Shown: piece after piece, positions 598 to 41,367 of the stretch
Position numbering within the stretch: the first letter of the stretch is position 1
Layout of the letters: every line of letters starts with the position of its first letter
Source of the DNA: a bacterium
GTDB lineage: Bacteria > Hinthialibacterota > Hinthialibacteria > Hinthialibacterales > Hinthialibacteraceae
Reading direction: 5' to 3'
Length of the DNA stretch: 64,000 nt
NCBI GenBank assembly: GCA_963663405.2
Contig: CAXXSM010000092.1
Span: 96,001-160,000, forward strand
The notes under the pieces: model-generated
Database searches by the model: none
Told to the model about the DNA's origin: nothing
Seen by the model: the letters and a program-made list of their open reading frames with translations, nothing else
Program-made: the position numbers and the translations under genes

Positions 598-2758
598 CTA
601 ATACAATTCAAATCCTTCCACTGATGTCGTTTCTAACAAATCGGAAAGGCTCCATATTCGGATCGTGTGATCCTCACCCGCAGTTAGGAATGTTTTTCCG
701 TCTGGCGAGAAATCAATCGCGGTGATGGTCTCTTGATGGTTTCCATCAAAGGCGAACAATTGTTTCCCGCTGAATGTATCCCAGAGAACGATTGGTTTTT
801 TCTCTTCATTTTTATAATCGGAACACGCGGTAAGCAAATACTGACCATCAGGCGAAAATGATACGATATTCACGGAATGCAGAAAACTGTGGTATTGAAC
901 AAGAATCTCTCCCGTTTCCACGTCCCACAACAAAGATTTACTCTCACCGGCGCCTGTCACTAGGTACCGGCCATCCGTTGAAAATTCTGCGCAATAGAGA
1001 ATTCCCCTATGGCCCGTTAAAGTATGCAGCACATCCCCTGTCTCCGCGTCCCATAAGACCGCATCAATTAGCGTATTTTTTTTCGTGAGTACTTTAGATT
1101 CATCAGGAGAGAATCTGGCTACTTGAGGAAGATCGTATGGGAATATAGCAGAATGGCCGCATCTTCGATGAAGACGAATCTGTTGGAGGAACACTCGCAA
1201 GCGTATTCCCTCCGGCGCCCGTGGGTGGATTGATGAAGGAACGGATCTTATCTCCTGTCTCCACGTCCCAGATAGAGCCAAGTTCGTTATCATCCTCCGC
1301 GATTCCTGTAAGGATTTTCGTTCCATCACGGGTTACATCGAAGGAGAGATCGTCTCTTCCCAATACTGTCAGAGATTGGATTAAATCAGCGCTTTTCACA
1401 TCCCAGAGGTAGAATCGATTGGGATACACGCTCGTGATAAAATACCGGCCATTCTCTTCCGGATTGGAAAGATCTCCATCTCCAGAAAATGAGACGAAAT
1501 AGGCGTCGCCTTCTAAAGGAGAGAACGTACGAACGACCGAACCGTCTTCCACATTGATCAAGAAAGCGCATGAAGCGGTTCCCACACCGATTGTTTTTCC
1601 ATCTGGAGAGAATTTCGCGGTGTAAATGGATTGAATCGTATTTCCATAATTACAAATCAGTTTATTCGTTTCCAAATCCCATAGCTGCATCAAACCATAG
1701 TTCGTTCCAATGAAGTGCTGTTCACCAAGCCGGAGAGGGTACTCATCTGAGAGATCCCATATTGATCCGTAATTCGACACGATTACGCGCCGTTTGTCTT
1801 TCAAGAGATAGCCGTATTCGCCCGATCCGGGACACTCAATTCGTTCCATGGCTCTTCCCGTCTCCGGATTAATATATTCAATCGCCACTGAATCATTTCC
1901 AATTATGTTCCCCTTGGAAATCGATATAATTTGATTGCCATCGGGTGCAAATTGAGCGGATCCAGACAGTATTACTCTTCTTACATACTCACCAGTTAAG
2001 GTTTCCCAAAGATACCCGCGAAGAATAGTACCATGACTGCTTTGTTCAGCCGCTAATAGATAATTGCCATCGGGTGAAAAGGAAACGGATTTAAAGACGT
2101 AATAACTCTGAGCGTATGTGACGAGTTTCTCTCCCTCTTCAGCGCTCCATAAATCCAGCGCACTTTCCTGTTTCAACCCTACATTCTTGGTCAACTCGAT
2201 CGTGCCAATCGCGATGTATTTAATGTCGGGCGAAAAGACCGCTTGTGAGATGGCTGTGCGATAGGCGCCATAAGCGCGGACAAACGTTCCTGTTTCCAAG
2301 TTCCACATCTCGACGCGGAACGTTTCACAGTCCTCATCACAGGTACCAATGAGCGCGTATTTCCCATCGGGAGAGATACTGAATCCATCCGTCACATTCA
2401 TCAAGCAATCGAAAGACAAGATCTCTCGCCCCGTCGCAACATCCCAGAGGATGCAATAATTTCCAAGCGCCAACAGTTTCGAACCATCCGGTGTGAACGC
2501 CAATCCCAAAACAAGATGATCCTTTTTATAGAGCCGCTGGATCAGTTCACCGGTATCTGTATCCCATAGAAACACTCCAAACTCACCACCCGTCGCAAAA
2601 AGGCGCTCATCGGGCGAGACCGCCACGGAATACACTGGACCAGCGTTCAAAATCGTTTCACCCGAAGGCCCTATAACCGGTTGTGAATAAACGGGAGTTA
2701 ACAAACAGATGGATACAAGTAGCACAATAATTGAGGAGTAAATATCACGTGGATTCAT
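598..2758 (-). CDS. Secreted WD40-repeat protein, one apparent frameshift near 1140-1200
   Basis: Signal peptide and many FSPDG...LWD repeats. ORF 1103..2758 continues in the frame of ORF 598..1329 (…QVARFSPDESKVL…GHRGILYCAEFSTDG…) and ends TTSVEGFELY. Confidence 0.88.
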
Positions 2759-2999
2759 AATTTATCTCACTTATCAATTGAATAGGGTGGAGGAAATCTA
2801 AACTATAATAACCAATCATTTCCCGGACGAGACTAATCTATCACAAAAAATAATATGGATTGGTATGGGTATGTAAAATGTTGTACAGAGAGGGGTATTA
2901 TGAAGAGATCATGAAAACTTTTTACATATTCAAATTATTAATAAGGAGAGAAACGAGACAGATCAAGGATATCAGCGCTTGAATAATCGGATCAAGGAA

Positions 3000-4523
3000 T
3001 CACACATTCTTCCGGTTGGCTAAACTGAAAAGAGACGCGGCGATCAACAGCGCGATCGTACCCGCCGTACCGACGATAATGCTGTCGAGATTGCATTCCA
3101 GCCATTGCAGCGATGTCGGCGTTATTTTCATATTGAATGTTGTGTTAAGATATTCAATCTTTTCCGGCAGATCGCGGGCGAATGTGCCCCATCCGATCAC
3201 GATAAAACTGATCAAGATGGAGACCAGCCCCTGCCATACTTGCAACCGCGTCCGGAACAGCGCCAGCAAGAACAAACCCAGGATCGCACCGCCGAAGATG
3301 CCCGATACCGCCCACCAGAGATCCAGTGTGCTGCCGCCTCCATAAATACAGAGGATCGCGAATCCGGTTCCTAAAATTCCCCACAACACGGTGATGAAGC
3401 GGAGAATGAATACGCTGTTCGCTTCGTCCACATCCGGATTGATATAGCGCTTATGAAAATCCAACAGGTAGACCGTCGCCGAACAATTCAACGCCGAATC
3501 GACCGTGCTCATCGCCGCCGCGATAATCGCCGCTACAATCAAGCCTTTCAATCCAACAGGCAACTGCGTAGCGATAAAATATGGAAAAACTTGATCGCCC
3601 TTGGTGATCTCTTCGGGCAGACCGGTCTGGGAGTAGAACGCGAAGAGCGCCGTTCCGATATAGAGAAAGACAGCGGTTAATGGAATGTAGATCAACATCG
3701 CGATCCAGATCGAGCGTTTGGCTTCCCGTTCCGTCGCGACAGTCGAGTATTTCTGCACGTAATTCTGATCGGCGATCAGGTTGCGCAGATTATCGAACAC
3801 CCCAAACAGAATCATCACCCAAATCGTCCGGGTGGTCAAATCGAAATCCCAACTGCCCCAGCTGAATTTATTCTCTGCGATCGCCGCTTGAATTAATGGT
3901 TGATCGCCGGAGAAAATCGATATGCTGAGACTAATCGCGCAGAAGGCGATTCCGACGATCATGATTACCGATTGGACTACATCCGTCCAAATGACCGCTT
4001 GCATACCACCCAGCAACGTATAAACAATCGTGACTACGCCGATCAGCACAATCACGGCGCCGATATTGAGTGGCACAAAATTGGTCAGCAACAAGCCGGC
4101 GAGATAGAGAATCACCGCGACGCGCCCAATCATTAATAAGAGAAAACAGAGTCCCGCATAAATCCGCGCCCAGGCGCCCAACCGCTCTTCCAAAAATTTA
4201 TACACGGAAATTAGGTTCAATTTCCGGTAATACGAGACCACGTACCGGCAGGTCAGCCAGGCTACGGGAAAGATGCAGATGGAGAAGATTATCGGATTCC
4301 AGTTGGCGTCAAACGCCTTCCCCGGCGTCGCGATGTACGAGATGCTGCTCGTATAGGTACTCATCACCGCCAATCCCGCCGCCCATGCGGGGATCGTCCG
4401 TCCGGCGACCATAAACTGCTCCGCCGTCTGGCTCTTCCTCACAAAATAAATTCCCATTACAACCAACACAATCGCGTATAGGATCAAAATCCCAGAATCG
4501 ATCGCTCCAAGACTTTCGTTCAC
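3000..4523 (-). CDS. Sodium:solute symporter (SSS/SLC5 family)
   Basis: Polytopic membrane protein with FMVAGRTIP, YTLLGGMQAVIWTDVVQ, DQNYVQKY and AAAMSTVDSALN motifs. Confidence 0.93.
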   Translation of the reverse strand: MNESLGAIDSGILILYAIVLVVMGIYFVRKSQTAEQFMVAGRTIPAWAAGLAVMSTYTSSISYIATPGKAFDANWNPIIFSICIFPVAWLTCRYVVSYYRKLNLISVYKFLEERLGAWARIYAGLCFLLLMIGRVAVILYLAGLLLTNFVPLNIGAVIVLIGVVTIVYTLLGGMQAVIWTDVVQSVIMIVGIAFCAISLSISIFSGDQPLIQAAIAENKFSWGSWDFDLTTRTIWVMILFGVFDNLRNLIADQNYVQKYSTVATEREAKRSIWIAMLIYIPLTAVFLYIGTALFAFYSQTGLPEEITKGDQVFPYFIATQLPVGLKGLIVAAIIAAAMSTVDSALNCSATVYLLDFHKRYINPDVDEANSVFILRFITVLWGILGTGFAILCIYGGGSTLDLWWAVSGIFGGAILGLFLLALFRTRLQVWQGLVSILISFIVIGWGTFARDLPEKIEYLNTTFNMKITPTSLQWLECNLDSIIVGTAGTIALLIAASLFSLANRKNV

Positions 4524-4663
4524 GTTTAACCTCCAATTGAAAATATCGAGTGTTAGAATCGTAGACGAACCAGATCATTTTACCAGGGCAAACGGGGATT
4601 TTTGGGGATTGTTTTAATCCTAAAAAAGAAATTGGGGGAATTATTGTTAAGGTAGTGTCTCAA

Positions 4664-5059
4664 TTACGGACATTGAAAACCAGGACTCTTATGAGCCTTC
4701 TTATCAAAACTGAGGACAGTATCATACCCCTCGTGTAACGCAATCTGTTGAATCAAATAATCAGAAAAATCCGCTTTGCCTATCCGGTAGAGTTGAAGGG
4801 CTTTCCTGCAAACCTCCTGCCTTTCAACATCAAATACAGAAACAGATAATATATCTTGCAATACATTAAGACGATCATGTTTAGATATTCTGTAGGCCGT
4901 TTGTAAAACCCAGTTTACTTCACATAATACAATACAAGAGATGAAAGCGGGTTTTTCCGGCGTCAACTTTTCAATCGCTTTAGTTGCTTTACGCGCCTGC
5001 GCTTGATCGTCTTGCATGATGTAACGCAGAAGTACATTCGTATCCAGCGCGATCATCAC
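4664..5059 (-). CDS. vapC: VapC-like PIN-domain toxin
   Basis: 131 aa with ALDTNVLLRY, EVNWVL, DFSDYLI and SFDKK motifs; overlaps the antitoxin stop codon. Confidence 0.92.
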   Translation of the reverse strand: MMIALDTNVLLRYIMQDDQAQARKATKAIEKLTPEKPAFISCIVLCEVNWVLQTAYRISKHDRLNVLQDILSVSVFDVERQEVCRKALQLYRIGKADFSDYLIQQIALHEGYDTVLSFDKKAHKSPGFQCP

Positions 5060-5298
5060 TCATGAATCCCTGCGTTTTCCGCAATTGCCCGCTCCATATC
5101 ATCGAGTGTTTTCGGCGCCCCCTCATAAGACAAACAGCCTTTCAATACCCGAACATCTAAAGTCTTTGGCCTTACAAGACATGCGCCATCCTTCAACATT
5201 TCAAAGACCAATTTATCACCTGTTTTCAGATGCATTGTATCCCGCAGGTTTTTGGGCAAAGTGATCTGACCTTTACTCGTTACAGTCGCTTCCATCAT
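5056..5298 (-). CDS. AbrB/MazE/SpoVT-family antitoxin
   Basis: ATVTSKGQITLPKNLR...GDKLVF signature. RBS AAGGAG precedes ATG at 5298/5295. Confidence 0.92.
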   Translation of the reverse strand: MMEATVTSKGQITLPKNLRDTMHLKTGDKLVFEMLKDGACLVRPKTLDVRVLKGCLSYEGAPKTLDDMERAIAENAGIHE

Positions 5299-5329
5299 CA
5301 ATTTCTCCTTTCGACTCACCTCTTAAATA

Positions 5330-5354
5330 TAGCATTATTTAGCATTGAATGCTA
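5330..5354. promoter_or_regulatory. Probable toxin-antitoxin autoregulatory operator
   Basis: Perfect palindrome TAGCATT-G-AATGCTA (5340-5354) plus an extra TAGCATT half-site (5330-5336), just upstream of the antitoxin. Function is inferred from typical type II TA autoregulation. Confidence 0.55.
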
Positions 5355-5449
5355 TTTAATACTGCGCTTCTGCTGAATATAGAATTCATGAACAATTCGT
5401 TTCTGGAAGAAAGGACCGAGATACTATTAAAACTTCACTCAAATGAAAA

Positions 5450-5474
5450 GGGGACAGACCCTTCGTCTGCCCCC
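5450..5474 (-). terminator. Rho-independent terminator of 5504..6445
   Basis: Imperfect GC hairpin GGGGACAGAC/GTCTGCCCCC followed by a T-run on the minus strand. Confidence 0.6.
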
Positions 5475-5503
5475 ACTTGTATTCGATTCAATAAAACAAT
5501 GTC

Positions 5504-6445
5504 TTAATGCGACTGCCACATCCCCACGGGTGTTTCACCCATCGTCCAGCGGATAATTCGGGCGGTCAATTCTTCTCCATCAGCCGTGAGATGCTCGATC
5601 ACGTTCAACCAATCCGGAGGCAGTTCGGCGCCGTTCATCGGACGCACTTGACCCGTCCAGAATATTGTCGACATCCGCGCCGTCGCGACGCCATCGGCGA
5701 GAGCTCCACCGGCTTCGACGACCGCAATAGCCGCCTTAGTTGGATTGTCTTTCCAAGTGGCTAGAACAACGGTTCCTTCCGCCGCTAAATCGACGGAATC
5801 ATAAATTCCTGTCCAAGCATCCCCTGGATTTTCGGGTGGCCCTTCGGGGCCATCTCCGAAGACTACGATTTCATCGGGGAAACCAGCGGTTAATTCGTGA
5901 GTTTTTCCCGCTTCGGTGAGTACAAGTGTATCGATACCACTAATATCTCCACTTTCCTCTCCAATAAAGAAACCACATGATCCAAGTTTGGCTCGCGTGC
6001 CAAAACAGGAGTGTTCACCCTGCACCACAGGAATTCCGTAATCCTTCACCGGCGGGGCGATGGATGACCAGCATGTGCCAGTATTGTAAATAAGATCGTA
6101 TTCATTATCCTGGAAGAAGTTCGGCTGCCACATATAGACACCGGGATTGATATACACATCATAGCCACGGCCCTCTTCATCGCCTTCCATCAGCATATAC
6201 TGAACGACGTAATCCGGCATGAGAATCGGCAGGTAGCCCATCCCATCGAGCATGTGTCTCGTTAATTCATCGTCCATCGAAAAGTGAGGCATGACATCAA
6301 AATCAAGGTTCCCGCCTGACGCTGCGCCATCACTTTCAGGACACCAGGAAATCCGGCCGATAAGAGCGATTTTTTTCGGCTGCGCGTCAGCCATCACCAC
6401 ACAAAACGCTAAAAGAATGACACTTAACAACAAAGTTTTTTTCAT
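5504..6445 (-). CDS. Secreted hypothetical protein
   Basis: Signal peptide MKKTLLLSVILLAFCVVMADA and RBS AAGGAG; acidic mature region; ends ETPVGMWQSH. Confidence 0.85.
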   Translation of the reverse strand: MKKTLLLSVILLAFCVVMADAQPKKIALIGRISWCPESDGAASGGNLDFDVMPHFSMDDELTRHMLDGMGYLPILMPDYVVQYMLMEGDEEGRGYDVYINPGVYMWQPNFFQDNEYDLIYNTGTCWSSIAPPVKDYGIPVVQGEHSCFGTRAKLGSCGFFIGEESGDISGIDTLVLTEAGKTHELTAGFPDEIVVFGDGPEGPPENPGDAWTGIYDSVDLAAEGTVVLATWKDNPTKAAIAVVEAGGALADGVATARMSTIFWTGQVRPMNGAELPPDWLNVIEHLTADGEELTARIIRWTMGETPVGMWQSH

Positions 6446-6687
6446 GAAAATTCTCCTTCGATCCTTTTAGGATTCAATAACGAATAATAAGATTTTCCAT
6501 CATTTCCCCCCAAAATAACATTGGGGAAATCATTACGAACAGACTACCACCTCCTTTCCCTATAGGAACTCTCCCCTATCAAAATCAATAGCGGCAATCT
6601 TCTAAATAAGACTACATAACCATAAAACTATACGGCTTTTTAACACAATATAATAGGAAACTCCACCCTTATTCAGAGAAAAAGTTA

Positions 6688-6780
6688 TTAAAATGAGTTT
6701 CCGAGATTTGCTCGTTTCCGATTACTCTCGCAACTCATTTTCATTTGCAGTTGTGATCTCAATCATGCTGGTTTATATGA
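6688..6780 (+). repeat. Dispersed ~95-bp hairpin repeat, family A, copy 1
   Basis: AAAATGAGTTTCCGAGA...TCTCGCAACTCATTTTCATTTGCAGTTGTGATCTCAATCATGCTGGTTTATA; homologous copies at six other intergenic sites. Confidence 0.9.
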
Positions 6781-7121
6781 ATTCACTCTTCTTCCTCTGT
6801 AGGATGCGTGCGGACAGCGGCGGTGTAAGGAAATTCCTGTAAATCGTGAAGACGGAATAATAAGTATTCCGATGGAGGCGCAATTTGGCTGGAATCCGTT
6901 TCATTATAGAGAACAATGTCGCAGGGAATTGACGCAAGAACGATGGAATCACGCGATCCCGCCCGTCCCCAGATATAGAGCCCTGTAACGAGCAACTCGT
7001 GACCGAATATCTCCGGCGTCAACGAAAGATCTTTTTTCAGCCCTAAATGCGTTTTCTTCAGCCAAAGGCTGCGAAGGAATTCGGCTTGTTTTTCTCCGTC
7101 CACGAAAAGCCGCTCCGGACA

Positions 7122-8726: not shown

Positions 8727-8890
8727 GCCACGATCCTCCTACTTAAATCCAAGAACGAATAGTCTATTTTCGAACAATCACCATTGTTTGTAAATGTGAA
8801 TCGCAGAATGGGGAGGAAATGAATGAAGAAAAAAGGGGAGGATAATCTTATAAAATTATGAAAAAATATACGGTTAAAAACCAGCCACTC

Positions 8891-23101: not shown

Positions 23102-24247
23102 ATGAAATCCTTCATCTTTACAATATTTCTCATTTTTATTTCCACAAACGCATTTCCCCAGAACATTAACACACCAGAGAACTTCCCCGATCCGAACTTT
23201 CGGGCGGCGGTTGAGAAATTTATGGGGGTGGCGCCGGGCGGCGAATTCACGGCGGCGAAAGCCTCTATAAAAGATGGGACATTGGATTGTTCCTGCTATT
23301 ACCTTGAGCAAAAAATTGAAGATATGACTGGGATAGAACATTTTCCCGCGTTAACTGGACTCTACTGCTGGAACAATCAATTAACCAGCCTGGATGTCTC
23401 CCACAACACCGCTTTGGAATTGCTCTACTGCGCGGAGAATCAATTAAGCAGCCTAGATGTCTCCAACAATCTCGCTTTAACTCAATTCTGGTGCGGTGGT
23501 AATCAATTAACCAGCCTGGATGTCTCCCACAACACCGCTTTGAAAAACCTCAATTGCGGGTACAATCAACTAACCAGCCTGGATGTCTCTAACAACCCCG
23601 CTTTGACTAACCTCTACTGCTATGAAAATCAATTAACCAGCCTGGATGTCTCCAACAACATTGCTTTGACTTATCTCAGCTGTGGTTTTAATCAATTAAC
23701 CAGCCTGGATGTCTCCAACAACATTGCTTTGACTTATCTCAGCTGTGGTTGGAATAAATCAACCAGCCTGGATGTCTCCGGAACCACTACTTTGGAACAG
23801 CTCTATTGCGACTGCAATCAATTAACTAGTCTGGACGTCTCCCACAACACCGCTTTGATAGACCTTAATTGCGGGTACAATCAACTAACCAACCTGGACG
23901 TCTCCCACAACACCGCTTTGAAAAACCTCAATTGCGGTGGAAATCAATTAACCAACCTGGACGTCTCCCACAACACCGCTTTGACTATACTCGACTGCTA
24001 TGAAAATCAATTAACCAGCCTTTCAAGTCTTGTAACCAACGAAGGTCTTGGGCCAGGAGACGAAGTGGATATTCGAAACAATTACATTGGTTGTGTTGAT
24101 CCTGACGCCTCTATGAGTGATATCCAAATTCTTGTAGAGCGATTTGGTGAGGCCGTCTTCGACACCTGGGGAAATCTTGAATCCGGTTTCGCCTTCTCAC
24201 CCCAGAAAAGATGTGAAACGGCGGTATTGGCTTGGTCCTTGCATTGA
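23102..24247 (+). CDS. Secreted leucine-rich-repeat protein
   Basis: Signal peptide, FPDPNFR cap, 11 x 21-aa repeats LxxLxCxxNQLTSLDVSxNxA; ends ETAVLAWSLH. Confidence 0.92.
   Translation: MKSFIFTIFLIFISTNAFPQNINTPENFPDPNFRAAVEKFMGVAPGGEFTAAKASIKDGTLDCSCYYLEQKIEDMTGIEHFPALTGLYCWNNQLTSLDVSHNTALELLYCAENQLSSLDVSNNLALTQFWCGGNQLTSLDVSHNTALKNLNCGYNQLTSLDVSNNPALTNLYCYENQLTSLDVSNNIALTYLSCGFNQLTSLDVSNNIALTYLSCGWNKSTSLDVSGTTTLEQLYCDCNQLTSLDVSHNTALIDLNCGYNQLTNLDVSHNTALKNLNCGGNQLTNLDVSHNTALTILDCYENQLTSLSSLVTNEGLGPGDEVDIRNNYIGCVDPDASMSDIQILVERFGEAVFDTWGNLESGFAFSPQKRCETAVLAWSLH
23351..24022 (+). repeat. 63-bp coding tandem repeat, about 11 units
   Basis: Recurrent AATCAATTAACCAGCCTGGATGTCTCC(C/A)ACAAC with 63-bp period. 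Confidence 0.92.
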
Positions 24248-25065: not shown

Positions 25066-26088
25066 ATGATGGCTATTCAAAATCGTTTAATCCTTTCCGT
25101 TTTGATTCTAGGTCTATTCGTAGAATTTTCTCGAGCTCAAATCTATCCAGAAAAAGAGTATTTTAATTCCGAAGACCAATCGATTGATACCTATTTCATC
25201 TCAGACGATCATTCACTCATCGTTTTAGGATCCGAGATGGTTCGAATTCTCGACGCAGCCACCAGCGATACGATTCAGACAATTGATCTGAAAGGAAAAC
25301 GCGCAAGGAGTCTGTCTCTATCACCGGACAATCAAAAATTACTGATAGGTCTCGATCGAGCGAAAGTCAAATTATGGGATGTCAATAACAATGTAGAAGA
25401 ATACACATTTGAAACATCAACTAAAAACGCTATTTATTTAGGTGGCCCAGCGCCTGTAGTTGCAACGGCCTTCCATCCAGACAATAATATATTTGCAACT
25501 GAAGAGAATTATCCTGCAGAATCATATTTGCAAATTTGGGATATGGTGAACCGAGTAGAATTATTAAGAGTAATGAAACATACCCCTGTGGAGAGATTAA
25601 TTTTTTCAAAAGATGGTAGGTACCTGTTAGAACGCTCTCTCCAAGATTCACGCGTCATATCTACTGAAACAGGAGAAATTCTACTTGATGTGAGTGGCGC
25701 AGGAGGAGTACTGTCAGATGATGGTAATAGTTTGTATATTGTTAATACTGGAAGCAAACCTGGTGAAACAGCCATTTTACGAAAATATGAAATAAGTAGT
25801 GATAAGATAACTTATACATCCGATGAATTTATGTCACTTGGTCCATATATTGAAGTTCTTCCAAATGGAAAATACCTATTAGCGCTGGATGAATCATAGA
25901 CCTCATTAGTAATACTCGATATAGAAAACAACGATATTACGCATACACTTGAAAACAAGAATAATGACGAGATTAAATACCACTCCTTTTGGAACAGCGC
26001 AAATCTGGTTTATGCTTTAAGTGGAAACAAAGTCTATAAATGGAAAATTCCCGGCTTAGATTCAGCTGTAGATTATCCTTTTTTCTAG
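25066..26088 (+). CDS. Secreted WD40-like beta-propeller protein interrupted by an in-frame TAG at 25897-25899 (possible pseudogene)
   Basis: Signal peptide; SLSPDNQKLL...VKLWD and AFHPDN repeats. The same frame continues 62 codons past the TAG (TSLVILDIENN...KVYKWKIPGLDSAVDYPFF*). Confidence 0.75.
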
Positions 26089-31719: not shown

Positions 31720-34512
31720 TCAGTAGTTTTCCCACAGAGACGCTTTCGAATCAGTAAGAGTATTCGCATCGGTGACAACGTGCAGGAAGAAATCCTGTTC
31801 GACCGTGTATTCTTCATTAATAATGGCGAGCAGGCGGACAAAGGCGCCGGCCGCGTTGTCAGGAACTTCCCAGTATAAAGTACCATCTTCCAGAATCGTC
31901 ATTCCCTCCGGACCGTCGAGTAATTCGAAGGTCACGGTTTCTGGATCCGCCAACACGCTGGGTTGATAGGAGAACAACGAATTTTCATGAACCGTCGAAG
32001 CGGGATACGTAATGAAAACGTGCGGATGCTCGTCAAGCCCCGATACAACATGGGGACTTGCGACGTTAACGGTAAATTCCTGAACGGCCTCTTCGATCCC
32101 CAGTCCGTTATCCTGCGCGTAATGATCGACCAGTTTGATCGTAACGGCATGGTTTCCTATCTGCGCCTCGGTTGGTGTCCAAAGAAGGGTTCCCGATTCG
32201 TGAATCGTCATCCCTTCCGGCCCTTGGACAATTTGCCATTCATACGATACATCGGTTAAACTGTCCTGAACCAGATGATGGAAATCGGCGTCGAAAAAGA
32301 CAGGATGATAGAAATAGGGTTGGTTGGCGACCGCGTTTGTTTGGGGTTTGGATACGATGTACGGATGGTTGTTCCCCTGCGCGTTATGGGGTACGGCGCG
32401 CACAATCGTAACCGGTTCCGAAGAATAATTGTCTTGATTCACAGCGATTACCGAGAACAAGAAAGGCAATCCGTTCGGCAGCGAGGGAATCGTTACACTG
32501 TTCATTTCCGGTGGAAGCGCGATCAGATGCGTCAACTCCCAATGATCGCCTTCCAAACCATATAGAATATTGTACTGAACCACGGTGGGATCATCGAGTG
32601 TTTTCCATGACAATTTGACGCTTTGATCCCCTTCGTACACGGCAATATCCGTTATATTTTCGGGGGAATTCGGATTTGAGATATGGACAGGAATAGGGGA
32701 ATACGCGTACTGAGGAGCGTTGACGCCATCGTCGATTCTCGCGTATACGAAATAATAGCCCGGCGCGAGATCCCGCTCATTCGCATCCAGAAAAATGGTA
32801 TTTTCCTCACCATCTTCTTCTGCGCTGGTGATGAAAAATCCGTCTTCCCCTTCCTGATCGGTATCGAGATAGAAACGAATTTCCGCATTATTATCGGAAT
32901 CTTCATCAAACCAGGTCACTTCGAACACATTCGAAGTCTTGGTTTCGGTTATCGTTTGAATCTCCACATACGGCATATCATTTTGGATCAGGGTTTCCAC
33001 ACTGTATTCCCCTAGTTGATCCGCATTCGAAATGGTGACAGTATACGAACCGGGATCCGGCTGATGAAGGAAGAAACTGGCGTCGTTTCCTTCCAGATTC
33101 ATAATGCTGAAACCGGCAATATTCTCATAACCAACGGGCAGCAAACCATCGGCGATATCCAAAATCGTTCCGTCCGGCAGAGTCAGAGTGGCGTCGACAT
33201 TCGTCACATCGTCATTGGCGTATCCAATACGGAAGATGACGGCGGGGACGCCTTCATCGAGCGTAAATGATGTAACCGGCTCCCCAGTGGGACGAATTTG
33301 GAATGTCCGCATCGAGTTTTTCGTCAAGGTTCGATTCAACACAGACCAGTTCGTCATAAACCGGAACGCCTGACCGCTTTTAGGATCTACATAAACTTTA
33401 TTGTTGTTAAATTCCCAAGGATTCTCCGGTTGATTTTCGCTCAACGAGAATGAAATATCTCCATCCATAAACGAGAATCCAACATTGATGCTGAAATACG
33501 CGGGATTCGGCACACACACATCCGGAAGACAAACTTCCGGCCCACAGCCGACAATCGGCAGGCAGGGGGGAACGTGGGAACAACCACCCGGCGTACATAA
33601 TTTTTTGGGAAGTGGAGCCACTGAAACGCTGCCGGAAAAACCATGCGTGTTAATAGTCGCTTTCACTTCACCGACGGATATGCTGCCCACGACGGGCAAT
33701 GAGGGAGTCTGCAAATCACCCGTTAACGTACCTTCGAAAGTATTACGATCGATCACGAAATGGATATCCGCTGAATAGATAGAGACGAATTCAGCATGGG
33801 CGTCAACCGTAAGCCGCTTTTGGGAAGGCAGAAAAACCGCATTTAGCGTGTCCCCTGTATCCACGCCAAAGACCTTCGCCGATCCGTTTATATCAAATTG
33901 CCCGGCTTCAGCAGCGATCGATGATTTTAGATGAATGACAAATTCAGCGTCGATTTCAAGCGGACTCACTAACAATCCGGCGTCTCCAATGTCCGGGCCG
34001 GCTGTGATACCGACTCGCCCGGAAAACGTCTCATCGGAACTGAAGCCTACTAATCCAAGAATTTGATTTTTTAATTTATTCGCGGCGTTCAACATCATAC
34101 ACACGATATCAATAGAATTTTTGGGCACGCAAACGTCCGTGATTAAAGCGTTCGAATACCCGATTCCAATAGAATCAAGAAACGCCCCGGTATCGGCGAT
34201 CGGGATATTCAATCCGCTGACCTCCGCATCAAGTTTTAACAATTGTTCATTGCCCGCGTCATATTCGATATCCGCGTCGAAGCCGTATAGGCTATTCTCC
34301 CCTTCTTCTGGGAAATAGGGAATTTTTAGCACCGCGTGGCCCTTATAGATATCATCCGCCGCATCGTACTCGAGACTGACTCCCGATAACGCGCCGACAT
34401 AGGGAAGAGAAATATCCGGTGTAATCACAATTTCTTGGGCGGGAACAGTAGATGGCAATACCAAAACACTAACCAATACAACGAAACGGATCGAAAAAAA
34501 CTTCTTCATCAT
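31720..34512 (-). CDS. Large secreted protein with FN3 and Ig/cadherin-like (He_PIG-type) domains
   Basis: Signal peptide MMKKFFSIRFVVLVSVLVLPSTVPA (RBS GGAG); FN3-like SVKLSW...YNILYG; two GPEGMTI...G.L.W repeats; ends DSKASLWENY. Confidence 0.85.
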   Translation of the reverse strand: MMKKFFSIRFVVLVSVLVLPSTVPAQEIVITPDISLPYVGALSGVSLEYDAADDIYKGHAVLKIPYFPEEGENSLYGFDADIEYDAGNEQLLKLDAEVSGLNIPIADTGAFLDSIGIGYSNALITDVCVPKNSIDIVCMMLNAANKLKNQILGLVGFSSDETFSGRVGITAGPDIGDAGLLVSPLEIDAEFVIHLKSSIAAEAGQFDINGSAKVFGVDTGDTLNAVFLPSQKRLTVDAHAEFVSIYSADIHFVIDRNTFEGTLTGDLQTPSLPVVGSISVGEVKATINTHGFSGSVSVAPLPKKLCTPGGCSHVPPCLPIVGCGPEVCLPDVCVPNPAYFSINVGFSFMDGDISFSLSENQPENPWEFNNNKVYVDPKSGQAFRFMTNWSVLNRTLTKNSMRTFQIRPTGEPVTSFTLDEGVPAVIFRIGYANDDVTNVDATLTLPDGTILDIADGLLPVGYENIAGFSIMNLEGNDASFFLHQPDPGSYTVTISNADQLGEYSVETLIQNDMPYVEIQTITETKTSNVFEVTWFDEDSDNNAEIRFYLDTDQEGEDGFFITSAEEDGEENTIFLDANERDLAPGYYFVYARIDDGVNAPQYAYSPIPVHISNPNSPENITDIAVYEGDQSVKLSWKTLDDPTVVQYNILYGLEGDHWELTHLIALPPEMNSVTIPSLPNGLPFLFSVIAVNQDNYSSEPVTIVRAVPHNAQGNNHPYIVSKPQTNAVANQPYFYHPVFFDADFHHLVQDSLTDVSYEWQIVQGPEGMTIHESGTLLWTPTEAQIGNHAVTIKLVDHYAQDNGLGIEEAVQEFTVNVASPHVVSGLDEHPHVFITYPASTVHENSLFSYQPSVLADPETVTFELLDGPEGMTILEDGTLYWEVPDNAAGAFVRLLAIINEEYTVEQDFFLHVVTDANTLTDSKASLWENY

Positions 34513-34799
34513 ATACCAATCTCCAATCATAGATCGAATAAATTTCATGTAATTTAACATTATAGCGATCTTTTTCAAATATATTCAAATATAGTTATTG
34601 AAAAAGAGAAAAAAATAGGTAGAAATGTGGAGGATTATCCTCAAATTATACGAGAACATGCTACAAATCAGCGTTCCGTATATATATAAACGATATGATT
34701 TACTACTTGTCTACAACCAATTCTTCTCTAACATTTTTTTATAATATTTTTTATACATAATAAAACTGAAATAAAACAAAATGGAGCCACTAAAACAAT

Positions 34800-35426
34800 A
34801 TGAAAATCCGTAAGATGACATTCGCCTTCACGCTAATCGAATTGTTAATTGTCGTCGCCATCATTGGTATTCTAGCGGCGATCGCGGTCCCCAATTTCCT
34901 CAATGCGCAGATTCGGGCCAAAATCGCGCGATGTAAAGCGGATATGCGTTCGTTCGCCACGGCGTTTGAATCGTATTATGTGGATTGGAACACATTCCCC
35001 GATCCCGCGTGGGATTATGATATCATGGCCTTCCGTGGATTTCACAAATTAACGACACCGGTGGCGTATATGAGCAGCATCCCCGACAATCCGTTCGGGG
35101 AATCGATGGAAAATTCAGGGGAAATGATGAAAGGATACGAATACGGCGCGGGCAAAGCGGGCGTTGGAGCCCGGATTCATCCGATGAACACTTACATTTT
35201 TGAATCACATGGCCCCGGGAAAGTCGAACTCACCCACGGCTCAATCGCGACAATGTCCTATCCCGGCGGCGGTTGGCAAACCTATGACGCGGCGCGTTTA
35301 CTCGGTCTCATCTATCATCCTTCTAATGGCGTGAACAGCCGGGGTGAGATCATTTCCGTTGGTGGTATAGCCCCTCCCGAACCAGGCGTGAACCGGTTCT
35401 TCCAAGTTGTAAAGGGTGGATTGTAA
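34800..35426 (+). CDS. Prepilin-type N-terminal cleavage/methylation protein (GspG/pilin-like)
   Basis: FAFTLIELLIVVAIIGILAAIAVPNFLNAQIRAK; LTTPVAY; YHPSNG. Confidence 0.92.
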   Translation: MKIRKMTFAFTLIELLIVVAIIGILAAIAVPNFLNAQIRAKIARCKADMRSFATAFESYYVDWNTFPDPAWDYDIMAFRGFHKLTTPVAYMSSIPDNPFGESMENSGEMMKGYEYGAGKAGVGARIHPMNTYIFESHGPGKVELTHGSIATMSYPGGGWQTYDAARLLGLIYHPSNGVNSRGEIISVGGIAPPEPGVNRFFQVVKGGL

Positions 35427-35465
35427 AAGAATTTTTAAAATGCTATTCCCTTGAAATAAAGTCCA

Positions 35466-37275
35466 TCATTCGATACGAAAGATATCTCCCCTCGGCGTGA
35501 ACGGTAACCGGCTGTAGGAAGGGATCAAAAAAGCATGTTCGCGCCGAATACTCAATCGGTCGCACCAACCATCAGTTATAATCAGCAGGGGGGCGTCTTT
35601 TGGAAAATCTTCCGCTTGTTGAAGTAGATTAATTCCCGGTTGAAGGATGGTCCCACCTCGCCCTTTGATTTTTACATGTTCACATAATTCTTCGGGCGCT
35701 ATATATCCTTGATCGTAAGTCGCAGCGTCACAAAATACCAATCGAATACGATTCACATCGCGGGAAAGACTATAACTGGCGATCGCTCCCAACGCCCGGG
35801 CAAGCAGGTTTCGATCCATGGAGCCGGATGTATCCAGTACTACGCCAAAGGTCCGGTTTTCCTCAGCGCCCCATCGCGGCACATAATGAGGCCGTGGAAT
35901 ATCCGGACTGCCAGACTGCCGGCGGCTTGGTTTCGCATAGGACCGGATCTTTTCCAGCGGCGTAAAATGCCCATCAAACCACTTCGCCAGTTCCACATCC
36001 CAAGGAATCGGTGGGTGCGCTAACGCGTTGATTTCCTCAATCAGCCCAGCCGGTAAGAAGCCTCTTTCTTGCTCGGAATGATACTCCAATCCCTGTATCA
36101 AACAGCGCCGGTAAAAATATCCAGATCGCTTCCGGCGCCATGCGCCCACCAATCCGGCACTTGTGGATCTAACATATCCCCCTTGCCAATCCCCCGTAAT
36201 GTAGCGAGTTTACGAATCCGCCGCAGATCGGCGGCAATGATATCATAGACCGATTCCGCGGATTCACCCTTTAATTTCGGATCATAGAGAGCGCCGAAAG
36301 CGGGCATGTCGCCACACTGCATTTCCATCAGCCAACCATTGATGACATAATCACAAGCGGCGTTCCAAAGAAAGGGATCCCGTCCCTGCCGCCTGGAATC
36401 ATGGCGCAAACCCACGTGAAGCAATTCATGAGCGATTACAAATTTACTTTCTTCTTCGGTTAAGCTCATCGCGGGATTCAGATAAATCTCCTGCAGTTCC
36501 GCGTGAACGGCCGCCACCGAAATATCCATCCGGTGACATATGGATTGATCCTCAATGATTTTAAAACGGATGGCTAACGAACCCAGCAAAGGATACGAAT
36601 TGATGAACCAGCTTCGCGCCCGTTGCGCGCTAGTATTTTCATACTGTTCCGAATCGATCGTTTTCTGTTTCCCCGCCGCCACATTAACCGCGCTGGTTAC
36701 AGCGTTGCGCAAGCCGATTCCCAACAGTTTTTTCCAATCGGGCTCATTGCCAAAGAAATAATATCGCCTCCTCTCAAATATCATATCCGATTGACCTGGA
36801 TTCCCCGTCCCAAAACTCATGAATCGTTTGGGCAAACCATTCGCTAGAAATTCTTCATAGAGTTGCTGTTCCGAATTGATAGGCAGGTCCATTAAAATAT
36901 AGGTTTCGCCAGCCGATTTTGTCCGAGTTTGAAATCATCTAGAAACTTCGCTATGGTTAAATCACAAGCGGTATTCCACAGATCCGGCCGAGGTTTCTGC
37001 TTAAAATGCTCGAATCCTAAATGCAGCAAACAATGCGCAAACACATAAACCCACACATCTACTTCTTCATGCCGTTTCGGATGAGCGCAGATCATGCCAT
37101 CTATTGTAACAATCGCATATCCTTGGTCTGGATACAACACATCCTTAGTACGATAAATATCAACCGAATCCATAAGTGGGGCAAACATCGGATGCTTACT
37201 GATAATCCTCTCCGCATCCAAAAATTTTTGAGCGGCTGGATCGATTTTGTTTTTCGGCTTGTTTTTCCGCGCCAC
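35466..37275 (-). CDS. DUF2201-type metallopeptidase + vWA domain protein, apparent frameshifts near 36892 and 36110
   Basis: Three abutting ORFs: AHCLLH...WNTACD; AHELLH...WNAACDYVIN; and a vWA domain with VVLDTSGSM, GRGGT and IITDG. Confidence 0.82.
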
Positions 37276-38335
37276 CTATTTCCTCTCCTTCGCCAATCGG
37301 GGCAAGTCACGGATGATCCGGACTAAAAACCAATCCGGCAATACGCGCCCATCGTCACTTTGAGTGACGACCATCTGCGCGATCTCCAAGCTGATCGTGG
37401 ATAACTCTTTCAATAGATTTTTGGCTTGATGGGCAAGCCGCTTTTGATTGTCAGAGAGTTTGGTATCGTCATCAGGTAACTCTTTGATCAGATGCGCGCG
37501 AAAACTTTGCGCTAAAAAATATAACACATCCCGATCTCCCACTCCGTCTGGCCACCGGTCTTCACCTTTTAGAATTTTGGCCAAACCGAATTTGTTCCGA
37601 ATTTGTTTCACAAACGCTTTGAATTGCCCCGCATGTGTAGGCGATACACAGCCATGCGCCAACGTGTCTATCGTTTCGTCCGAAATATCTTCTCCATGCG
37701 CTTTGAGCGTATCACTCAAGATATGCCACGAACGGGGGGAGGAAAACGGCTCTTCGTGTTTCGGTGGTTTTTGGTGCAAGTGATCCGGACGATTTTGTAT
37801 ATATTCAATGATCCAGTGATGGATTTCCGCCTTCATCGCCCATTCCAGCCAGTCACGATGGGAAGCGCGAAGTTCAATGTGGAACATACGATTAATCAAG
37901 GCGGAGGACATTGGCTTTACAATCGCGCTGTCTTCCGCGCGGTTGCCCGCTCCAATGACAATAGAGCCTGATGGCATTGTGTATTCTCCAACACGCTTAT
38001 CGAGAATCAAACTATAGAACGCTTTTTGCACTTCATACGAGCAAGCGTTAAGTTCATCGAGAAAAAGGCAGTAGGGTTCGTCACGCGCAATCATGCTCGG
38101 AGGGCAGAACCGGCTTTTTCCATCGACAATCTGCGGCACTCCGATCAAGTCTTCGGGCGCCAATTGACTGCCTAGCAGAGACACACACGGCAATCCCACT
38201 TCATTCGCAAATTGAACAACCAGGGATGATTTTCCAATGCCCGGCGGTCCCCCAAATAAAAACAGGTCTTACCAAACCAATATTTAGTAATAATTCGCTT
38301 AATTCCTTCGGAGTAATTGACGTCGAAAGTTTCAT
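37276..38335 (-). CDS. MoxR-like AAA+ ATPase, frameshift at a G-run near 38250
   Basis: Removing one G from the run at 38249-38253 restores Walker A WGPPGIGKSS. Walker B LFLDELN; GAGNR, ALINR and SPRSW motifs. Confidence 0.88.
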
Positions 38336-38618
38336 ACAACCTCCATATGACACCATTTTAGCATCCCCCCTTCTCGCTAACATCCCTAAAATCGCCAATT
38401 CTCTTAGAACCTAAAAGTCGAGAAGGAAAAGAGATCATTGATTGGGCGATGGATAATGAGAGAAAAGAGATTCTCTTGCAGGAGAAAAATTAGAAATCAG
38501 GAAAGGATTAATGATAGTAACGATGGATATTGATTAAATTATTCAAACACCATTCAGCGCGGATTCTACGGCCCCCCGCTTTCCTGACTGGCGCGCTGGC
38601 GGTGGAATGAAGTGCGCA

Positions 38619-39812
38619 TTACAACTCGTTCCTCAACACCATATCACAGATGGGGCCGCGGCTGCGATCGCCTTTCAAAACGATATGCCCATAATGAGGT
38701 TCACCCAAGCAGGTTTTAACGATCCAGTTCAAGCCGTTGTTGAACTTGTTGAGATACCGGTTATCAATCTGCTCCACATCCCCCAGGCATACGCATTTTG
38801 TCCCATGACCCATCCGAGTTAAGAGACTTCGGACTTCTACGCGGGATAAATTCTGTGTCTCGTCTACAATCACAAACGCTCTTTCGATATTCATCCCGCG
38901 AATGTAAGCGATAGGAAGAATTTCGAAAAACTCTGGATTGAGTTTCAACTTGGCTGGTGTGGAGTCCTCCGTGAAAATCCGGCTGCACTTGCTGTCACGG
39001 TGCTGGTGCAGTTTATAGATTAGACTCCGCATGTATCGTACGTACGGGTCGACTTTATCCTCAATATCACCGGGCAGAAAACCAAGGCTTTCCCCGATTT
39101 CGATCGTCGGTTTGACCAGATAGATTTTGCTGTATCTTTTCTCCTGGATGACTTTCTGCATCCCCGCCGCCAGGGTGATGTAGGACTTCCCATATCCTGC
39201 TTTTGATTGAATACTCACCAAATGGATTTCGTCATTGAGCAGCAGTTCAAAGGCTAAATTCTGATACACATTCAGCGGTTTCACGTTCCAGACGGAATGT
39301 TCGTAATCGACTGGGTAGCGTTCCGCCGGCGATACATGCATAAACGGTTTGCCGTTCTCCCACGAAAACGAATTGGGGATAAACTGTTTCTGGTCCTCTT
39401 GTTGAAATCCTGTATACAGCTGCGATTCGGATTGATAGGGAATAGAATGTTCGAACGGTTCACTGCGAACGTTATGATACTTGCAGATCACCCGGAAAAG
39501 TTTATCGTTTGTGACCAGGATCGGTTCTTCGATGTTGGATTGTTTGATATCGTTTAATATCTGCAAATCGCCGGTGACTTTGCCGTTACTGCCTTTCTCT
39601 GCCCTTAATAACGTAACGTAGTCCTTCTCCTCGATCTCATCCACGACCCGCGCGACGAGTGGAGCCAACCGCTTATCATTTTTCAATCCTTCCAATTCGA
39701 GAATCACGGTATAGGGAAGATAGACCGCGTTTTCACTTCCATTATGCAGGATCTCAATGCAGTTTGGATTGTCCAGAAGAACATTCGTGTCAATTACATA
39801 ATTTTTTCGCAT
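38619..39812 (-). CDS. PhoH2-type protein (PIN domain + PhoH ATPase)
   Basis: YVIDTNVLL PIN domain; AGYGKS Walker A; LGFLPG, YIRG, IVDETQN and GDVEQID motifs. RBS GGAGG. Confidence 0.92.
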   Translation of the reverse strand: MRKNYVIDTNVLLDNPNCIEILHNGSENAVYLPYTVILELEGLKNDKRLAPLVARVVDEIEEKDYVTLLRAEKGSNGKVTGDLQILNDIKQSNIEEPILVTNDKLFRVICKYHNVRSEPFEHSIPYQSESQLYTGFQQEDQKQFIPNSFSWENGKPFMHVSPAERYPVDYEHSVWNVKPLNVYQNLAFELLLNDEIHLVSIQSKAGYGKSYITLAAGMQKVIQEKRYSKIYLVKPTIEIGESLGFLPGDIEDKVDPYVRYMRSLIYKLHQHRDSKCSRIFTEDSTPAKLKLNPEFFEILPIAYIRGMNIERAFVIVDETQNLSRVEVRSLLTRMGHGTKCVCLGDVEQIDNRYLNKFNNGLNWIVKTCLGEPHYGHIVLKGDRSRGPICDMVLRNEL

Positions 39813-40224
39813 GAACGCCTCCAACAAATTGGCATAAGGGATAAGCAACCGCAGGCTGGCCGGTGTTACGTGTCAAATAGAAGCAGGAAAAGAAAGGCGC
39901 CTTCAATTGATTTCTCAATCGGTGCTTAGGGGTTATGAGAATGGAACGATTCGTGTTTTGTCTCATTGATTTTAGAACGTGATTCCTTTTTGTTGATCGA
40001 TAGGTTCCTCCTTTCCAATCGTATCAAGTGATTGATTGACTCGTTCCTTGGATGCCTTTGTTGCAGCGTTCGATTGGTAACAGCTGTTTCATTCGAATCC
40101 CTCATCCCTTATTAATAGTCATTAACTAGGTTAGTGTATATCGTTTTTTTGGATTTATGTATCGATCCATGTTGGATTAATAATAATTTAACACAATTTG
40201 ATGAGATATTCAAAAAATTTTTTT

Positions 40225-40346
40225 TAACCACCATGATCGAAATTACAACCAGCAAATGAAAATGAGTTGCGGGAGAAATCCTGAACGAGAAAGTCTCGGA
40301 AACTCATTTTCATATAAAACCATCATGATTGAGATCACCACAAAAA
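40225..40346 (-). repeat. Family A repeat, copy 6, plus an abutting partial tandem copy
   Basis: Full reverse copy at 40225-40316, followed directly by AAACCATCATGATTGAGATCAC (3' portion of a second unit). Confidence 0.88.
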
Positions 40347-40378
40347 TGAAACGCCGCCGTAATACCGGCGGCGTTTCA
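40347..40378 (-). terminator. Rho-independent terminator of 40402..41367
   Basis: Perfect 13-bp stem TGAAACGCCGCCG / CGGCGGCGTTTCA followed by a T-run on the minus strand. Confidence 0.8.
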
Positions 40379-40401
40379 ATTGGACTCATTTCTAGGCTGG
40401 A

Positions 40402-41367
40402 TTAATAAAGTGACCAAGTATTCACTTCTGAGGTTTCCAGTTGTTCAACGACAAAATTATCCCACAACGCCCAGGCTCGATCTTCCCCATTCGAACCAAA
40501 TGGATCTTCGTGAGCGATTAAAACGCGTCCAGACGTATAGGTCATATCGGGATCTGTATACGTATGAACCTGAACGCCATTCAGAAAAACAGTGACGGTT
40601 CCATCGACGTATTCCATCGAGACGGTCACCCAACGGTTTCCTGGTGAACCGATAAAATGATCCGCTGCATCCCCAGGGAATAATTCCGCAAATAACGCGT
40701 CGTTGTTTTCTCCATTGGACTCCAGAAGCACACGGCAATCACTAATCGCCGCTGGATCGGCGACTGCCCATTCCCCACAGGAGAAATTGGCGCCGGCGGA
40801 ACCCTCTGGGAATCCTTCCGTAAATAAATAATCACCACGGGATCCAGAATCCCCATCCGAATTCATCGAAAAGAAATACCCATCCGATTGGCTGGGTAAA
40901 TCATTGCTGTCGGGCGCATAGACAAAACCTTCCCAACTCACGACAAGATCGCCGCTCTGATAGATTCCGAAATTGAAATTCTCCGTCGTGCCGGAGGTTT
41001 CAGGAATGAAATTCATATACACGTCAACACTCGCTCGAATGTTCCCTGAAAACTCTTCACTGGTATAAAAATTGATCACATCAGCCGTATTATATCCACC
41101 GACATTGGCATATACCTGCACGCCTGTGGTCGAGCCATCCGTGGAATTCGGAGCGGGAGAGATTCCCATATCCGAATAATCAACAAATTCCCAAAAATGC
41201 TGGAATCCATCTGGATCTTCTGGATTCTCATAAACTAGAATATCAAAGTTATTTTCAGAATCAGCGCTGTCAAATCCATCGGTGAATAAAACGGTCTGTG
41301 AAAAACAGAGGGGAGAAGCAAAAAGAACTGCCATTGCAAACAGCCAAAAAGTAGTTTGTTTCAGCAT
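40402..41367 (-). CDS. Secreted acidic beta-sandwich (ConA/LamG-like) hypothetical protein
   Basis: Signal peptide and RBS AGGAGG; WVTVSMEY...VTVFLNG...WDNFVV; ends TSEVNTWSLY. The fold is inferred. Confidence 0.82.
   Translation of the reverse strand: MLKQTTFWLFAMAVLFASPLCFSQTVLFTDGFDSADSENNFDILVYENPEDPDGFQHFWEFVDYSDMGISPAPNSTDGSTTGVQVYANVGGYNTADVINFYTSEEFSGNIRASVDVYMNFIPETSGTTENFNFGIYQSGDLVVSWEGFVYAPDSNDLPSQSDGYFFSMNSDGDSGSRGDYLFTEGFPEGSAGANFSCGEWAVADPAAISDCRVLLESNGENNDALFAELFPGDAADHFIGSPGNRWVTVSMEYVDGTVTVFLNGVQVHTYTDPDMTYTSGRVLIAHEDPFGSNGEDRAWALWDNFVVEQLETSEVNTWSLY

Follow-up and report, generated by a model that had tools for sequence, protein, structure and literature searches.

The window analyzed here is a 64 000-nucleotide stretch of bacterial DNA (contig CAXXSM010000092.1; G000:C92:96001-160000 in our numbering), taken from an assembly of 8.44 Mb in 170 contigs that has 46.9% G+C and is rated 82% complete. 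An earlier examination of its open reading frames (ORFs), the sequence-only reading, had proposed that several exported proteins with unrelated bodies end in the same nine-residue tail, [TS]-x-[VA]-x-x-[WF]-x-x-[YH], and that this tail is a candidate protein-sorting signal. The five tails on which the proposal was built, TSVEGFELY, TPVGMWQSH, TAVLAWSLH, SKASLWENY and SEVNTWSLY, are all present at the ends of the genes concerned and in one register (Table 1), and a signal-peptide-like N-terminus is seen in each of the five proteins. The ends of these genes had been placed correctly, but the WD40 gene is not the single frame it was taken for, because a frameshift breaks it into two ORFs (598..1329 and 1103..2758). 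The propeller gene is interrupted by an in-frame TAG at 25897..25899. Elsewhere in the window, a gamma-glutamyltranspeptidase gene is broken into two overlapping ORFs (49110..49877 and 49762..50400).

Table 1. Genes of the window with examined C-terminal ends, and the pseudopilin-like genes beside them (window positions; tail scores from the genome-wide profile)
Feature	Position	Strand	Characteristics
WD40 beta-propeller gene	598..2758	-	Signal peptide; WD40 Pfam matches; tag TSVEGFELY, 17.9 bits
TSVEGFELY tag of the WD40 gene	coding 601..627, stop 598..600	-	
Exported protein without Pfam/NCBIfam family	5504..6445	-	Divergent tag TPVGMWQSH, 2.5 bits
Leucine-rich-repeat (LRR) protein	23102..24247	+	Signal peptide; canonical tag ETAVLAWSLH, coding 24215..24244, 23.8 bits
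Beta-propeller gene	25066..26088	+	End SAVDYPFF, -7.8 bits, outside the tag family
Large exported FN3/He_PIG Ig-domain protein	31720..34512	-	Divergent tag SKASLWENY, 2.3 bits
Pseudopilin-like gene	34800..35426	+	PF07963 prepilin N-terminal methylation motif; divergent from the FN3 gene
Concanavalin/3-keto-disaccharide-hydrolase-like beta-sandwich	40402..41367	-	Signal peptide; canonical tag TSEVNTWSLY, coding 40405..40434, 20.0 bits
Pseudopilin-like gene	41469..42023	-	101 nt upstream of the tagged beta-sandwich gene, same strand

A short C-terminal tag across the genome

The genome-wide gene set comprised 7138 non-overlapping ORFs of at least 80 amino acids, with the longest chosen first, which is a crude selection. 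The proposed pattern is real and far above chance, as it terminates 67 of the 7138 ORFs with 0.4 expected from composition, but the conserved core proved to be longer and sharper than the pattern describes. Iteration of a position matrix over the 14 C-terminal residues, with a membership threshold of 10 bits, converged on 155 ORFs, 150 of which score above 15 bits; none of 21 414 random internal positions exceeded 10 bits, the best reaching 9.2. The refined consensus is [TVS]-[PSA]-[VI]-x-[DN]-W-x-[LIV]-[YFH]-(0-1 residue)-COOH. Among the 155 members, position -9 is occupied by T in 79, V in 42 and S in 25, and position -8 by P in 35, S in 33 and A in 31. Position -7 is V in 118 and I in 24, position -5 is D in 48 and N in 36, and position -4 is W in 148. 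The last two conserved positions are L (97), V (25) or I (19) at -2 and Y (91), H (30) or F (30) at -1. Upstream of the core, E, P and G are enriched at positions -12 to -10, and conservation ends about 12 residues from the C-terminus. A short C-terminal tag therefore exists in this genome, far beyond chance.

The common register at the very end of the protein holds for the 155 ORFs, but not for every carrier, since a further 29 ORFs, and whole clades of Sumerlaeota described below, are one residue longer. This additional (+1) residue is E in nine of the 29, K in six, D in five, Q in three, R and Y in two each, and N and H in one each. Two, three and four residues follow the motif in three, two and two ORFs, respectively. 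No ORF has the motif 5-15 residues from its end, and deeper within proteins 21 matches occur in 2.23 million positions. Carriers total about 190, or 2.6% of the ORFs of the genome.

Within the window, the two divergent tails score well below the threshold and still satisfy the four anchor positions of the original pattern, for which the whole-genome chance expectation is 0.4. In TPVGMWQSH the anchors T, V, W and H are retained while positions -2 and -3 are atypical; a search of genome contigs found no relatives of this protein. The end of the propeller, which had been offered as a sixth, degenerate version of the tail, is not a member of the family. The absence of the tail from the cytoplasmic proteins and lipoproteins of the window was confirmed, because no other ORF among the 53 in the set scores above -5 bits on the tail profile.

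In the DNA that encodes the tails, the information is held by the first two positions of each codon. The three codon positions hold 1.27, 1.56 and 0.02 bits for Val at -7, and for Thr at -9 they hold 0.49, 0.90 and 0.05 bits. Synonymous codons are used freely, the stop codons are divided among TAA (99), TGA (43) and TAG (13), and the 40 nucleotides downstream of the tails carry at most 0.14 bit per position. When the last 12 residues of the 155 carriers were masked, the proteins formed 65 single-linkage BLAST clusters (E <1e-5), 42 of them singletons, which agrees with the earlier description of unrelated bodies. The largest of these clusters have 29, 16, 12 and 9 members, and the window LRR protein belongs to the 16-member cluster of tagged paralogues. 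The tag is thus selected at the protein level.

These results bear on the possibility that the tail has no function and arose as a by-product of paralogous ancestry, from a mobile element or a terminator lying at the ends of genes, or through artefacts of gene calling. Some carriers are paralogous, as the four largest clusters show, and the assembly does contain frame breaks. However, the number of clusters and singletons that remain after masking, the lack of information in third codon positions and in the DNA downstream, the fixation of the motif to within 0-1 residues of the end, and its conservation in two phyla with reversed-pattern controls near zero (see below) make a functionless tail extremely unlikely.

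Export, folds and selectivity of the tagged proteins

Signal peptides were called with a crude rule that also accepts 30% of all other ORFs. By this rule, 125 of the 155 carriers (81%) are positive compared with 2061 of 6983 other ORFs (odds ratio 10, Fisher p 1e-38), which upholds the association with signal-peptide proteins within the limits of the predictor. Many of the 30 negative carriers start at non-ATG codons and have no N-terminal region, like truncated ORFs. A segment resembling a transmembrane (TM) helix beyond residue 50 occurs in just 5 of the 155 carriers and a C-terminal membrane helix in none, as expected from the earlier description of a short tag without a membrane helix; a lipobox-like motif was found in a single carrier. 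The predicted first mature residue is Gln in 50 of 118 tagged versus 157 of 946 untagged signal-peptide proteins, using a crude cleavage rule (odds ratio 3.7, p 9e-10). A likely cleavage site of the form [ASP]-Q is present in all six window proteins whose ends are listed in Table 1. The Gln after cleavage resembles the ‘Q-rule’ of Bacteroidetes, which its authors call Bacteroidetes-specific (PMC5837995). The glutaminyl cyclase family PF05096 was not found in the genome, at its 82% completeness.

Pfam models were run on 60 of the 65 cluster representatives, leaving out the three longest, one fragment of 198 amino acids and one protein of 393 amino acids (C140:37882-39063). At E <=1e-4, 24 of the 60 were matched and 36 were without a match. 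The repeat and binding modules found on carriers include LRR, WD40, CotH with a lamin-tail domain, LamG-type, FG-GAP, NHL/SGL propellers and beta-helix, together with CBM9 (three), FlgD-Ig, a cohesin with a dockerin, and DNRLRE/CBM96. Enzymes are represented by a C1 peptidase, a GH5 glycoside hydrolase, an esterase, an FGE-type protein and a sulfatase. Within an enzyme family the tag is used selectively: among 35 ORFs of the sulfatase family with at least 350 amino acids it is present in two, one in the canonical and one in the +1 form.

An AlphaFold2 model of the window beta-sandwich, built from a six-row alignment, has a mean predicted local distance difference test score (pLDDT) of 68.7 and a predicted template modelling score of 0.76. 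The final strand spans residues 299-309 and the tag residues 313-321 have pLDDT <50, so that in this one model the tail is predicted to be unstructured and free of the fold.

An island at C4:77587-82835, C86:21812-26722 and C110:25112-30607 of the window's genome (G000) is present in three nearly identical copies, each with an ECF-sigma-like gene and with genes for a tagged FG-GAP-like protein of 477 amino acids, for a small membrane protein and for an exported protein of 519 amino acids. At L150 (G000:C130:124423-127044), a tagged protein of 873 amino acids with a dockerin and a cohesin is followed 114 nt downstream on the same strand by a pseudopilin-like gene.

Distribution in two candidate phyla and comparison with known signals

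Genomes were searched with a degenerate DNA pattern for T-x-V-x-x-W-x-L-Y-stop, with the pattern read backwards as control. In the window's own genome the pattern matches 21 times and the control never. Among 40 relatives, matches are found in all 19 genomes of the same family (6-25 each), in 5 of 6 of the same order and in 7 of 9 of the same class, with one control match overall; the six outgroups labelled ‘same domain’ have none. A stricter pattern searched over one genome per GTDB species gave 71 loci, 56 of which have a frame open for at least 44 codons upstream. All but one of these 56 belong to metagenome-assembled genomes (MAGs) labelled Candidatus Omnitrophota, Sumerlaeota, Hinthialibacteria OLB16 or simply ‘bacterium’, while the 15 short-frame loci are mostly scattered over named taxa. 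The remaining open-frame locus, in a Gemmatimonadaceae genome, was rejected as chance (one match versus one control match). A lead towards Candidatus Poribacteria, taken from a protein atlas and from TIGR04183-like tails (Kamke 2014), was also dropped, as the tagged records are labelled Omnitrophota, Hinthialibacteria and Sumerlaeota. The cysteinyl-tRNA synthetase (CysS) of the window is 73%, 69% and 67% identical to those of three SURF_12-type MAGs, 54% to that of OLB16 and 40% to that of a Sumerlaeales MAG. From these identities we place the genome in the Hinthialibacterota/OLB16-type group, with Sumerlaeota as a second tagged phylum.

In 61 Sumerlaeota genomes, the canonical form of the pattern occurs in 33 (98 matches, 4 in the control) and the +1 form in 31 (76 matches, four of them ending in TGG instead of a stop; 4 in the control), and 44 genomes have one form or the other. 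Homologues in two genomes that were negative for the canonical form end in ...RWTLYR and ...NWAFYK. The tag had been described as lineage-specific, a description that has to be widened to two candidate phyla, the Hinthialibacterota-type genomes and at least 44 of the 61 Sumerlaeota genomes. An orthologue search with a tagged Sumerlaeota protein gave matches in 5 of the 61 genomes only, so the tagged proteins evolve too fast for orthologue tracing. The tag is kept in homologues from other genera, such as those of the window beta-sandwich in G002, G018 and G021. Near relatives of the tagged GH5 protein end in ...FMLYD, ...YYLYE and ...WHIYE.

Homologues of the tagged proteins show what else can stand at this place. 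Among the best 120 homologues of the window LRR protein, 31 have PF18962, the C-terminal domain (CTD) of type IX secretion system (T9SS) substrates, six have SLH domains, two have dockerins, several end in a hydrophobic stretch followed by basic residues, and five end in the tag, some of the latter from this genome. Choice-of-anchor domains, described as domains that surface proteins pair with LPXTG, PEP-CTERM or T9SS anchors (bioRxiv 10.1101/2023.03.06.531300), also occur on carriers. NCBIfam models identify Choice_anch_Q in L122 (residues 480-522 of 536; 31.4 bits, cut-off 25) and Choice_anch_X in L125 (51.6 bits, cut-off 25), and choice-of-anchor J matches L151 at residues 373-473 of 487 with 26 bits, below its cut-off of 30. 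In L122 and L151, just 14 residues, which hold the tag, remain after the domain. The tag thus occupies the place of known anchors.

These observations suit an alternative in which the tail is a non-covalent surface-retention peptide, a minimal equivalent of a dockerin or SLH domain that would bind a scaffold or glycan and have no role in crossing the outer membrane. Besides the SLH domains, dockerins and membrane anchors at the same place in homologues and the presence of choice-of-anchor domains, it would account for the many carriers that are binding modules (LamG, CBM9, LRR, WD40, FG-GAP and the protein with a cohesin and a dockerin), and the conserved Trp, Leu and aromatic side chains may well suit a peptide bound in a groove. 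However, a scaffold with repeated receptor modules was not found, and the T9SS CTD, the commonest module at this place, serves export as well as attachment. We regard pure retention as possible, though unlikely.

The tag is distinct from the established C-terminal signals with which it can be compared. The T9SS CTD folds as an Ig-like domain and spans about 70-100 residues. Like this domain (type A, TIGR04183/PF18962; Bacteroidota and allies), the tag lies at the extreme C-terminus of unrelated Sec-exported soluble proteins, with many substrates per genome, but its length is 9-12 residues and the model shows it as unstructured. Neither PF18962 nor TIGR04183 matches any of the 60 tagged representatives; searches of the genome with TIGR04183 and TIGR02595 (PEP-CTERM) gave no match, and the control genomes were silent too. 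Tripartite signals such as LPXTG, PEP-CTERM, GlyGly-CTERM and PGF-CTERM consist of a motif, a hydrophobic TM helix and a basic cluster, and are processed by sortase, exosortase, rhombosortase and archaeosortase enzymes. They share with the tag a short C-terminal motif, many unrelated signal-peptide proteins, lineage specificity and carriers with choice-of-anchor domains. The tag, in contrast, has no TM helix or basic cluster, and the protein ends 0-1 residues past the motif. No sortase-like partner is among the families near tagged genes, although no search aimed at such enzymes was made. The WxL domain of Firmicutes, which are monoderms, is a folded domain of well over 100 residues with two WxL motifs that provides surface retention near the C-terminus. 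The W-x-L motif near the end of secreted proteins resembles this domain, but the tag is short and no WxL Pfam model matches the 60 representatives.

The closest comparison for a terminal aromatic residue is the beta-signal that outer-membrane proteins present to the beta-barrel assembly machinery (BAM), as both are aromatic-ending C-terminal motifs on Sec-exported proteins of a diderm. Carriers of the tag differ in being soluble lectin, repeat and enzyme folds, with a near-invariant Trp at -4 and an end in Tyr, His or Phe, and the conserved positions -9, -7, -5, -4, -2 and -1 do not alternate as those of a beta-signal do. Because the barrel-type proteins of this genome end in a different pattern, the classical alternating hydrophobics ...x-F, the tag is not a BAM beta-signal; in the sequence-only reading, too, the carriers did not appear to be barrels.

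A related alternative makes the tail a periplasmic quality-control or processing signal, that is, a degron or activator for a PDZ protease (HtrA/DegS, S41) or a mimic of the beta-signal. The motif is hydrophobic and aromatic and lies at or beside the C-terminus, and the genome encodes about ten PDZ proteins of the ordinary HtrA, S41, RseP and M61 types, four of them HtrA-like and three S41-type; one HtrA-like gene (C132:172283) adjoins a tagged gene (174047). Against this stand the different ends of the barrel proteins and the non-barrel folds of the carriers. A degron is also hard to rationalise on about 190 stable-looking lectins and enzymes, in two phyla and at the position of anchors, and the +1 forms argue against one fixed terminal residue, which weakens a PDZ-type reading. 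We therefore consider a quality-control role very unlikely. G000:C132:84155-87481 encodes a membrane protein of 1108 amino acids with an N-terminal BlaR1/M56-like sensor region and a C-terminal PDZ plus S41 module (assigned by eye and from the PDZ hit), and this module is similar to the stand-alone S41 protein C79:7624-9315.

None of the Pfam or NCBIfam (release 20) models covers the tail, and no sorting-signal model matches any of the 60 tagged representatives. Full-text searches of the literature on sorting signals, type II secretion signals, Poribacteria and these phyla brought up no description of the tail. The word ‘C-terminal’ is absent from the Hinthialibacter paper (PMC9324843; Williams 2022), and the full-text search showed no instance of it in the Sumerlaeota paper (PMC8092238). 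The tag is apparently undescribed so far.

A candidate address label and its possible reader

On balance, we read the tail as a probable address or docking label that directs proteins to the outer membrane, the surface or the exterior of the cell. The sorting function, the machine that reads the tail and the role of that machine are inferred here from the context of the tagged genes and proteins. The tail consists of a short acidic or Pro-containing linker and the core [TVS]-[PSA]-[VI]-x-[DN]-W-x-[LIV]-[YFH], with at most one further, polar residue, and ends a particular subset of the soluble proteins exported by Sec; it would act after that export. The folded protein would leave the tail free, and a protein receptor of the cell envelope could then bind it. 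The bound tail would probably lie as an extended strand, gripped through its Val, Trp, Leu and terminal aromatic side chains. Proteins recognised in this way would be singled out either to cross the outer membrane or to be retained on it. The job of the tag would then be the counterpart of that of T9SS CTDs, SLH domains, dockerins and sortase-type anchors in other phyla.

The neighbourhood of the tagged genes includes one family that might take part. A prepilin N-terminal motif marks 113 ORFs of the genome as pseudopilin-like. Most of them encode 185-230 amino acids, and they join a nearly invariant GspG-like helix to a conserved globular part of no known family; for the window members, GspG and PilA models match just the N-terminal helix. 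The motifs LTTPVAY, DPF and YDPTNGT-S-GNIW recur in the globular part. Matches to the secretin family PF00263 are found at eight places on eight contigs. A pseudopilin-like gene adjoins 13 of 155 tagged versus 56 of 1253 untagged signal-peptide genes (odds ratio 2.0, p 0.046) and lies within two genes of 22 tagged versus 89 untagged genes (odds ratio 2.2, p 0.004). The pair formed by the second pseudopilin-like gene of Table 1 and the tagged beta-sandwich gene is conserved in four genomes (G000, G002, G018 and G021), and a pilin gene follows a tagged gene in Sumerlaeota G080, in its homologue in G093, and in G071. The same pilin family is present in all 61 Sumerlaeota genomes with 20-61 copies, 45-58% identical over the full length. 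The closest beta-sandwich homologue, L002 (G013:C47; 46% identity), ends in SAITDWSVLK, and its 1.5 kb of upstream sequence contain no pseudopilin gene; a canonical tail is kept in the three homologues whose pilin neighbour is retained, an anecdotal observation.

A precedent for such a partnership comes from Vibrio cholerae, where the minor pilin TcpB recognises TcpF by a disordered terminal export signal that depends on an aromatic residue; the same source terms substrate recognition in type II secretion not well defined (PMC10120004). As in that system, the tag is a short terminal peptide with an aromatic residue on a Sec-exported folded protein and is predicted to be disordered, as the low pLDDT of residues 313-321 in the single beta-sandwich model indicates. 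Tagged genes are, moreover, modestly enriched beside pilin-like genes. The TcpF signal, in contrast, is N-terminal and involves one substrate and one pilin, while the tag is C-terminal and has about 190 candidate substrates and about 100 pilin-like paralogues. A complex prediction of a pseudopilin-like protein of the window (residues 33-184) with the beta-sandwich (residues 24-321) gave an ipSAE interface score of 0.00 twice, run without controls, and speaks neither for nor against binding.

Several results weigh against the address-label reading or against the partner suggested for it. The ORF set and the signal-peptide rule are crude, and the assembly is rich in frameshifts as well as incomplete. 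No reader, protease or transporter is found among the families within three genes of tagged genes, where the only recurrent neighbours are the pilins and the sigma/anti-sigma pairs of the triplicated island. For about 85% of the tagged genes in this genome, the two nearest genes on either side include no pilin gene. The pilin family does not co-vary with the tag, because it is present in every Sumerlaeota genome, including the 17 without tag matches. The surroundings (±1.5 kb, 89 kb altogether) of 30 tag sites sampled without bias from Sumerlaeota hold one pilin start where pilin density predicts about 0.5-1, a chance-level result of low power because only 1.5 kb downstream was visible. Finally, it follows from the +1 forms that the aromatic residue need not carry the alpha-carboxylate.

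A sharper version of the address label would make the tail an export signal of the type II secretion or type IV pilus type, bound by a pseudopilin-like member and carried through a secretin. The numbers of pseudopilin-like ORFs and secretins, the roughly two-fold adjacency enrichment over untagged signal-peptide genes, the conserved gene pairs, the pilin family common to both tag-bearing phyla and the TcpF/TcpB precedent all speak for it. Its weaknesses are the equal presence of pilins in Sumerlaeota genomes without tag matches, the chance-level adjacency in Sumerlaeota, the majority of tagged genes without a pilin neighbour, and a precedent that is N-terminal with a single substrate. We hold this version to be rather unlikely, and the pseudopilin-like family as reader of the tag is no more than a weak lead, given that the family is in all 61 genomes and the unbiased sites are at chance level. 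Going further, the tail could be the substrate half of a linear, transplantable code for secretion and display by a machine of the type II secretion or type IV pilus kind, with about 190 cargo proteins handled by members of a family of about 100 pseudopilin-like proteins, a proposal that we find unlikely.

C-terminal sorting signals show which proteins a bacterium places on or beyond its surface, and each of those recognised earlier (LPXTG, PEP-CTERM, the T9SS CTD) exposed a dedicated machine. The tag described here marks a sizeable set of proteins in a large genome of the polysaccharide-degrader type, is invisible to current annotation models and is common to two little-known candidate phyla. 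A profile of the tag would split the exported proteins of both phyla into two classes, and the nine-residue peptide could serve as bait for finding its reader. If that reader is a pseudopilus apparatus, substrate recognition of the type II kind would become directly testable, and a transplantable code read by pseudopilins, if true, would be the first simple sequence signal for export by a secretin and pseudopilus.

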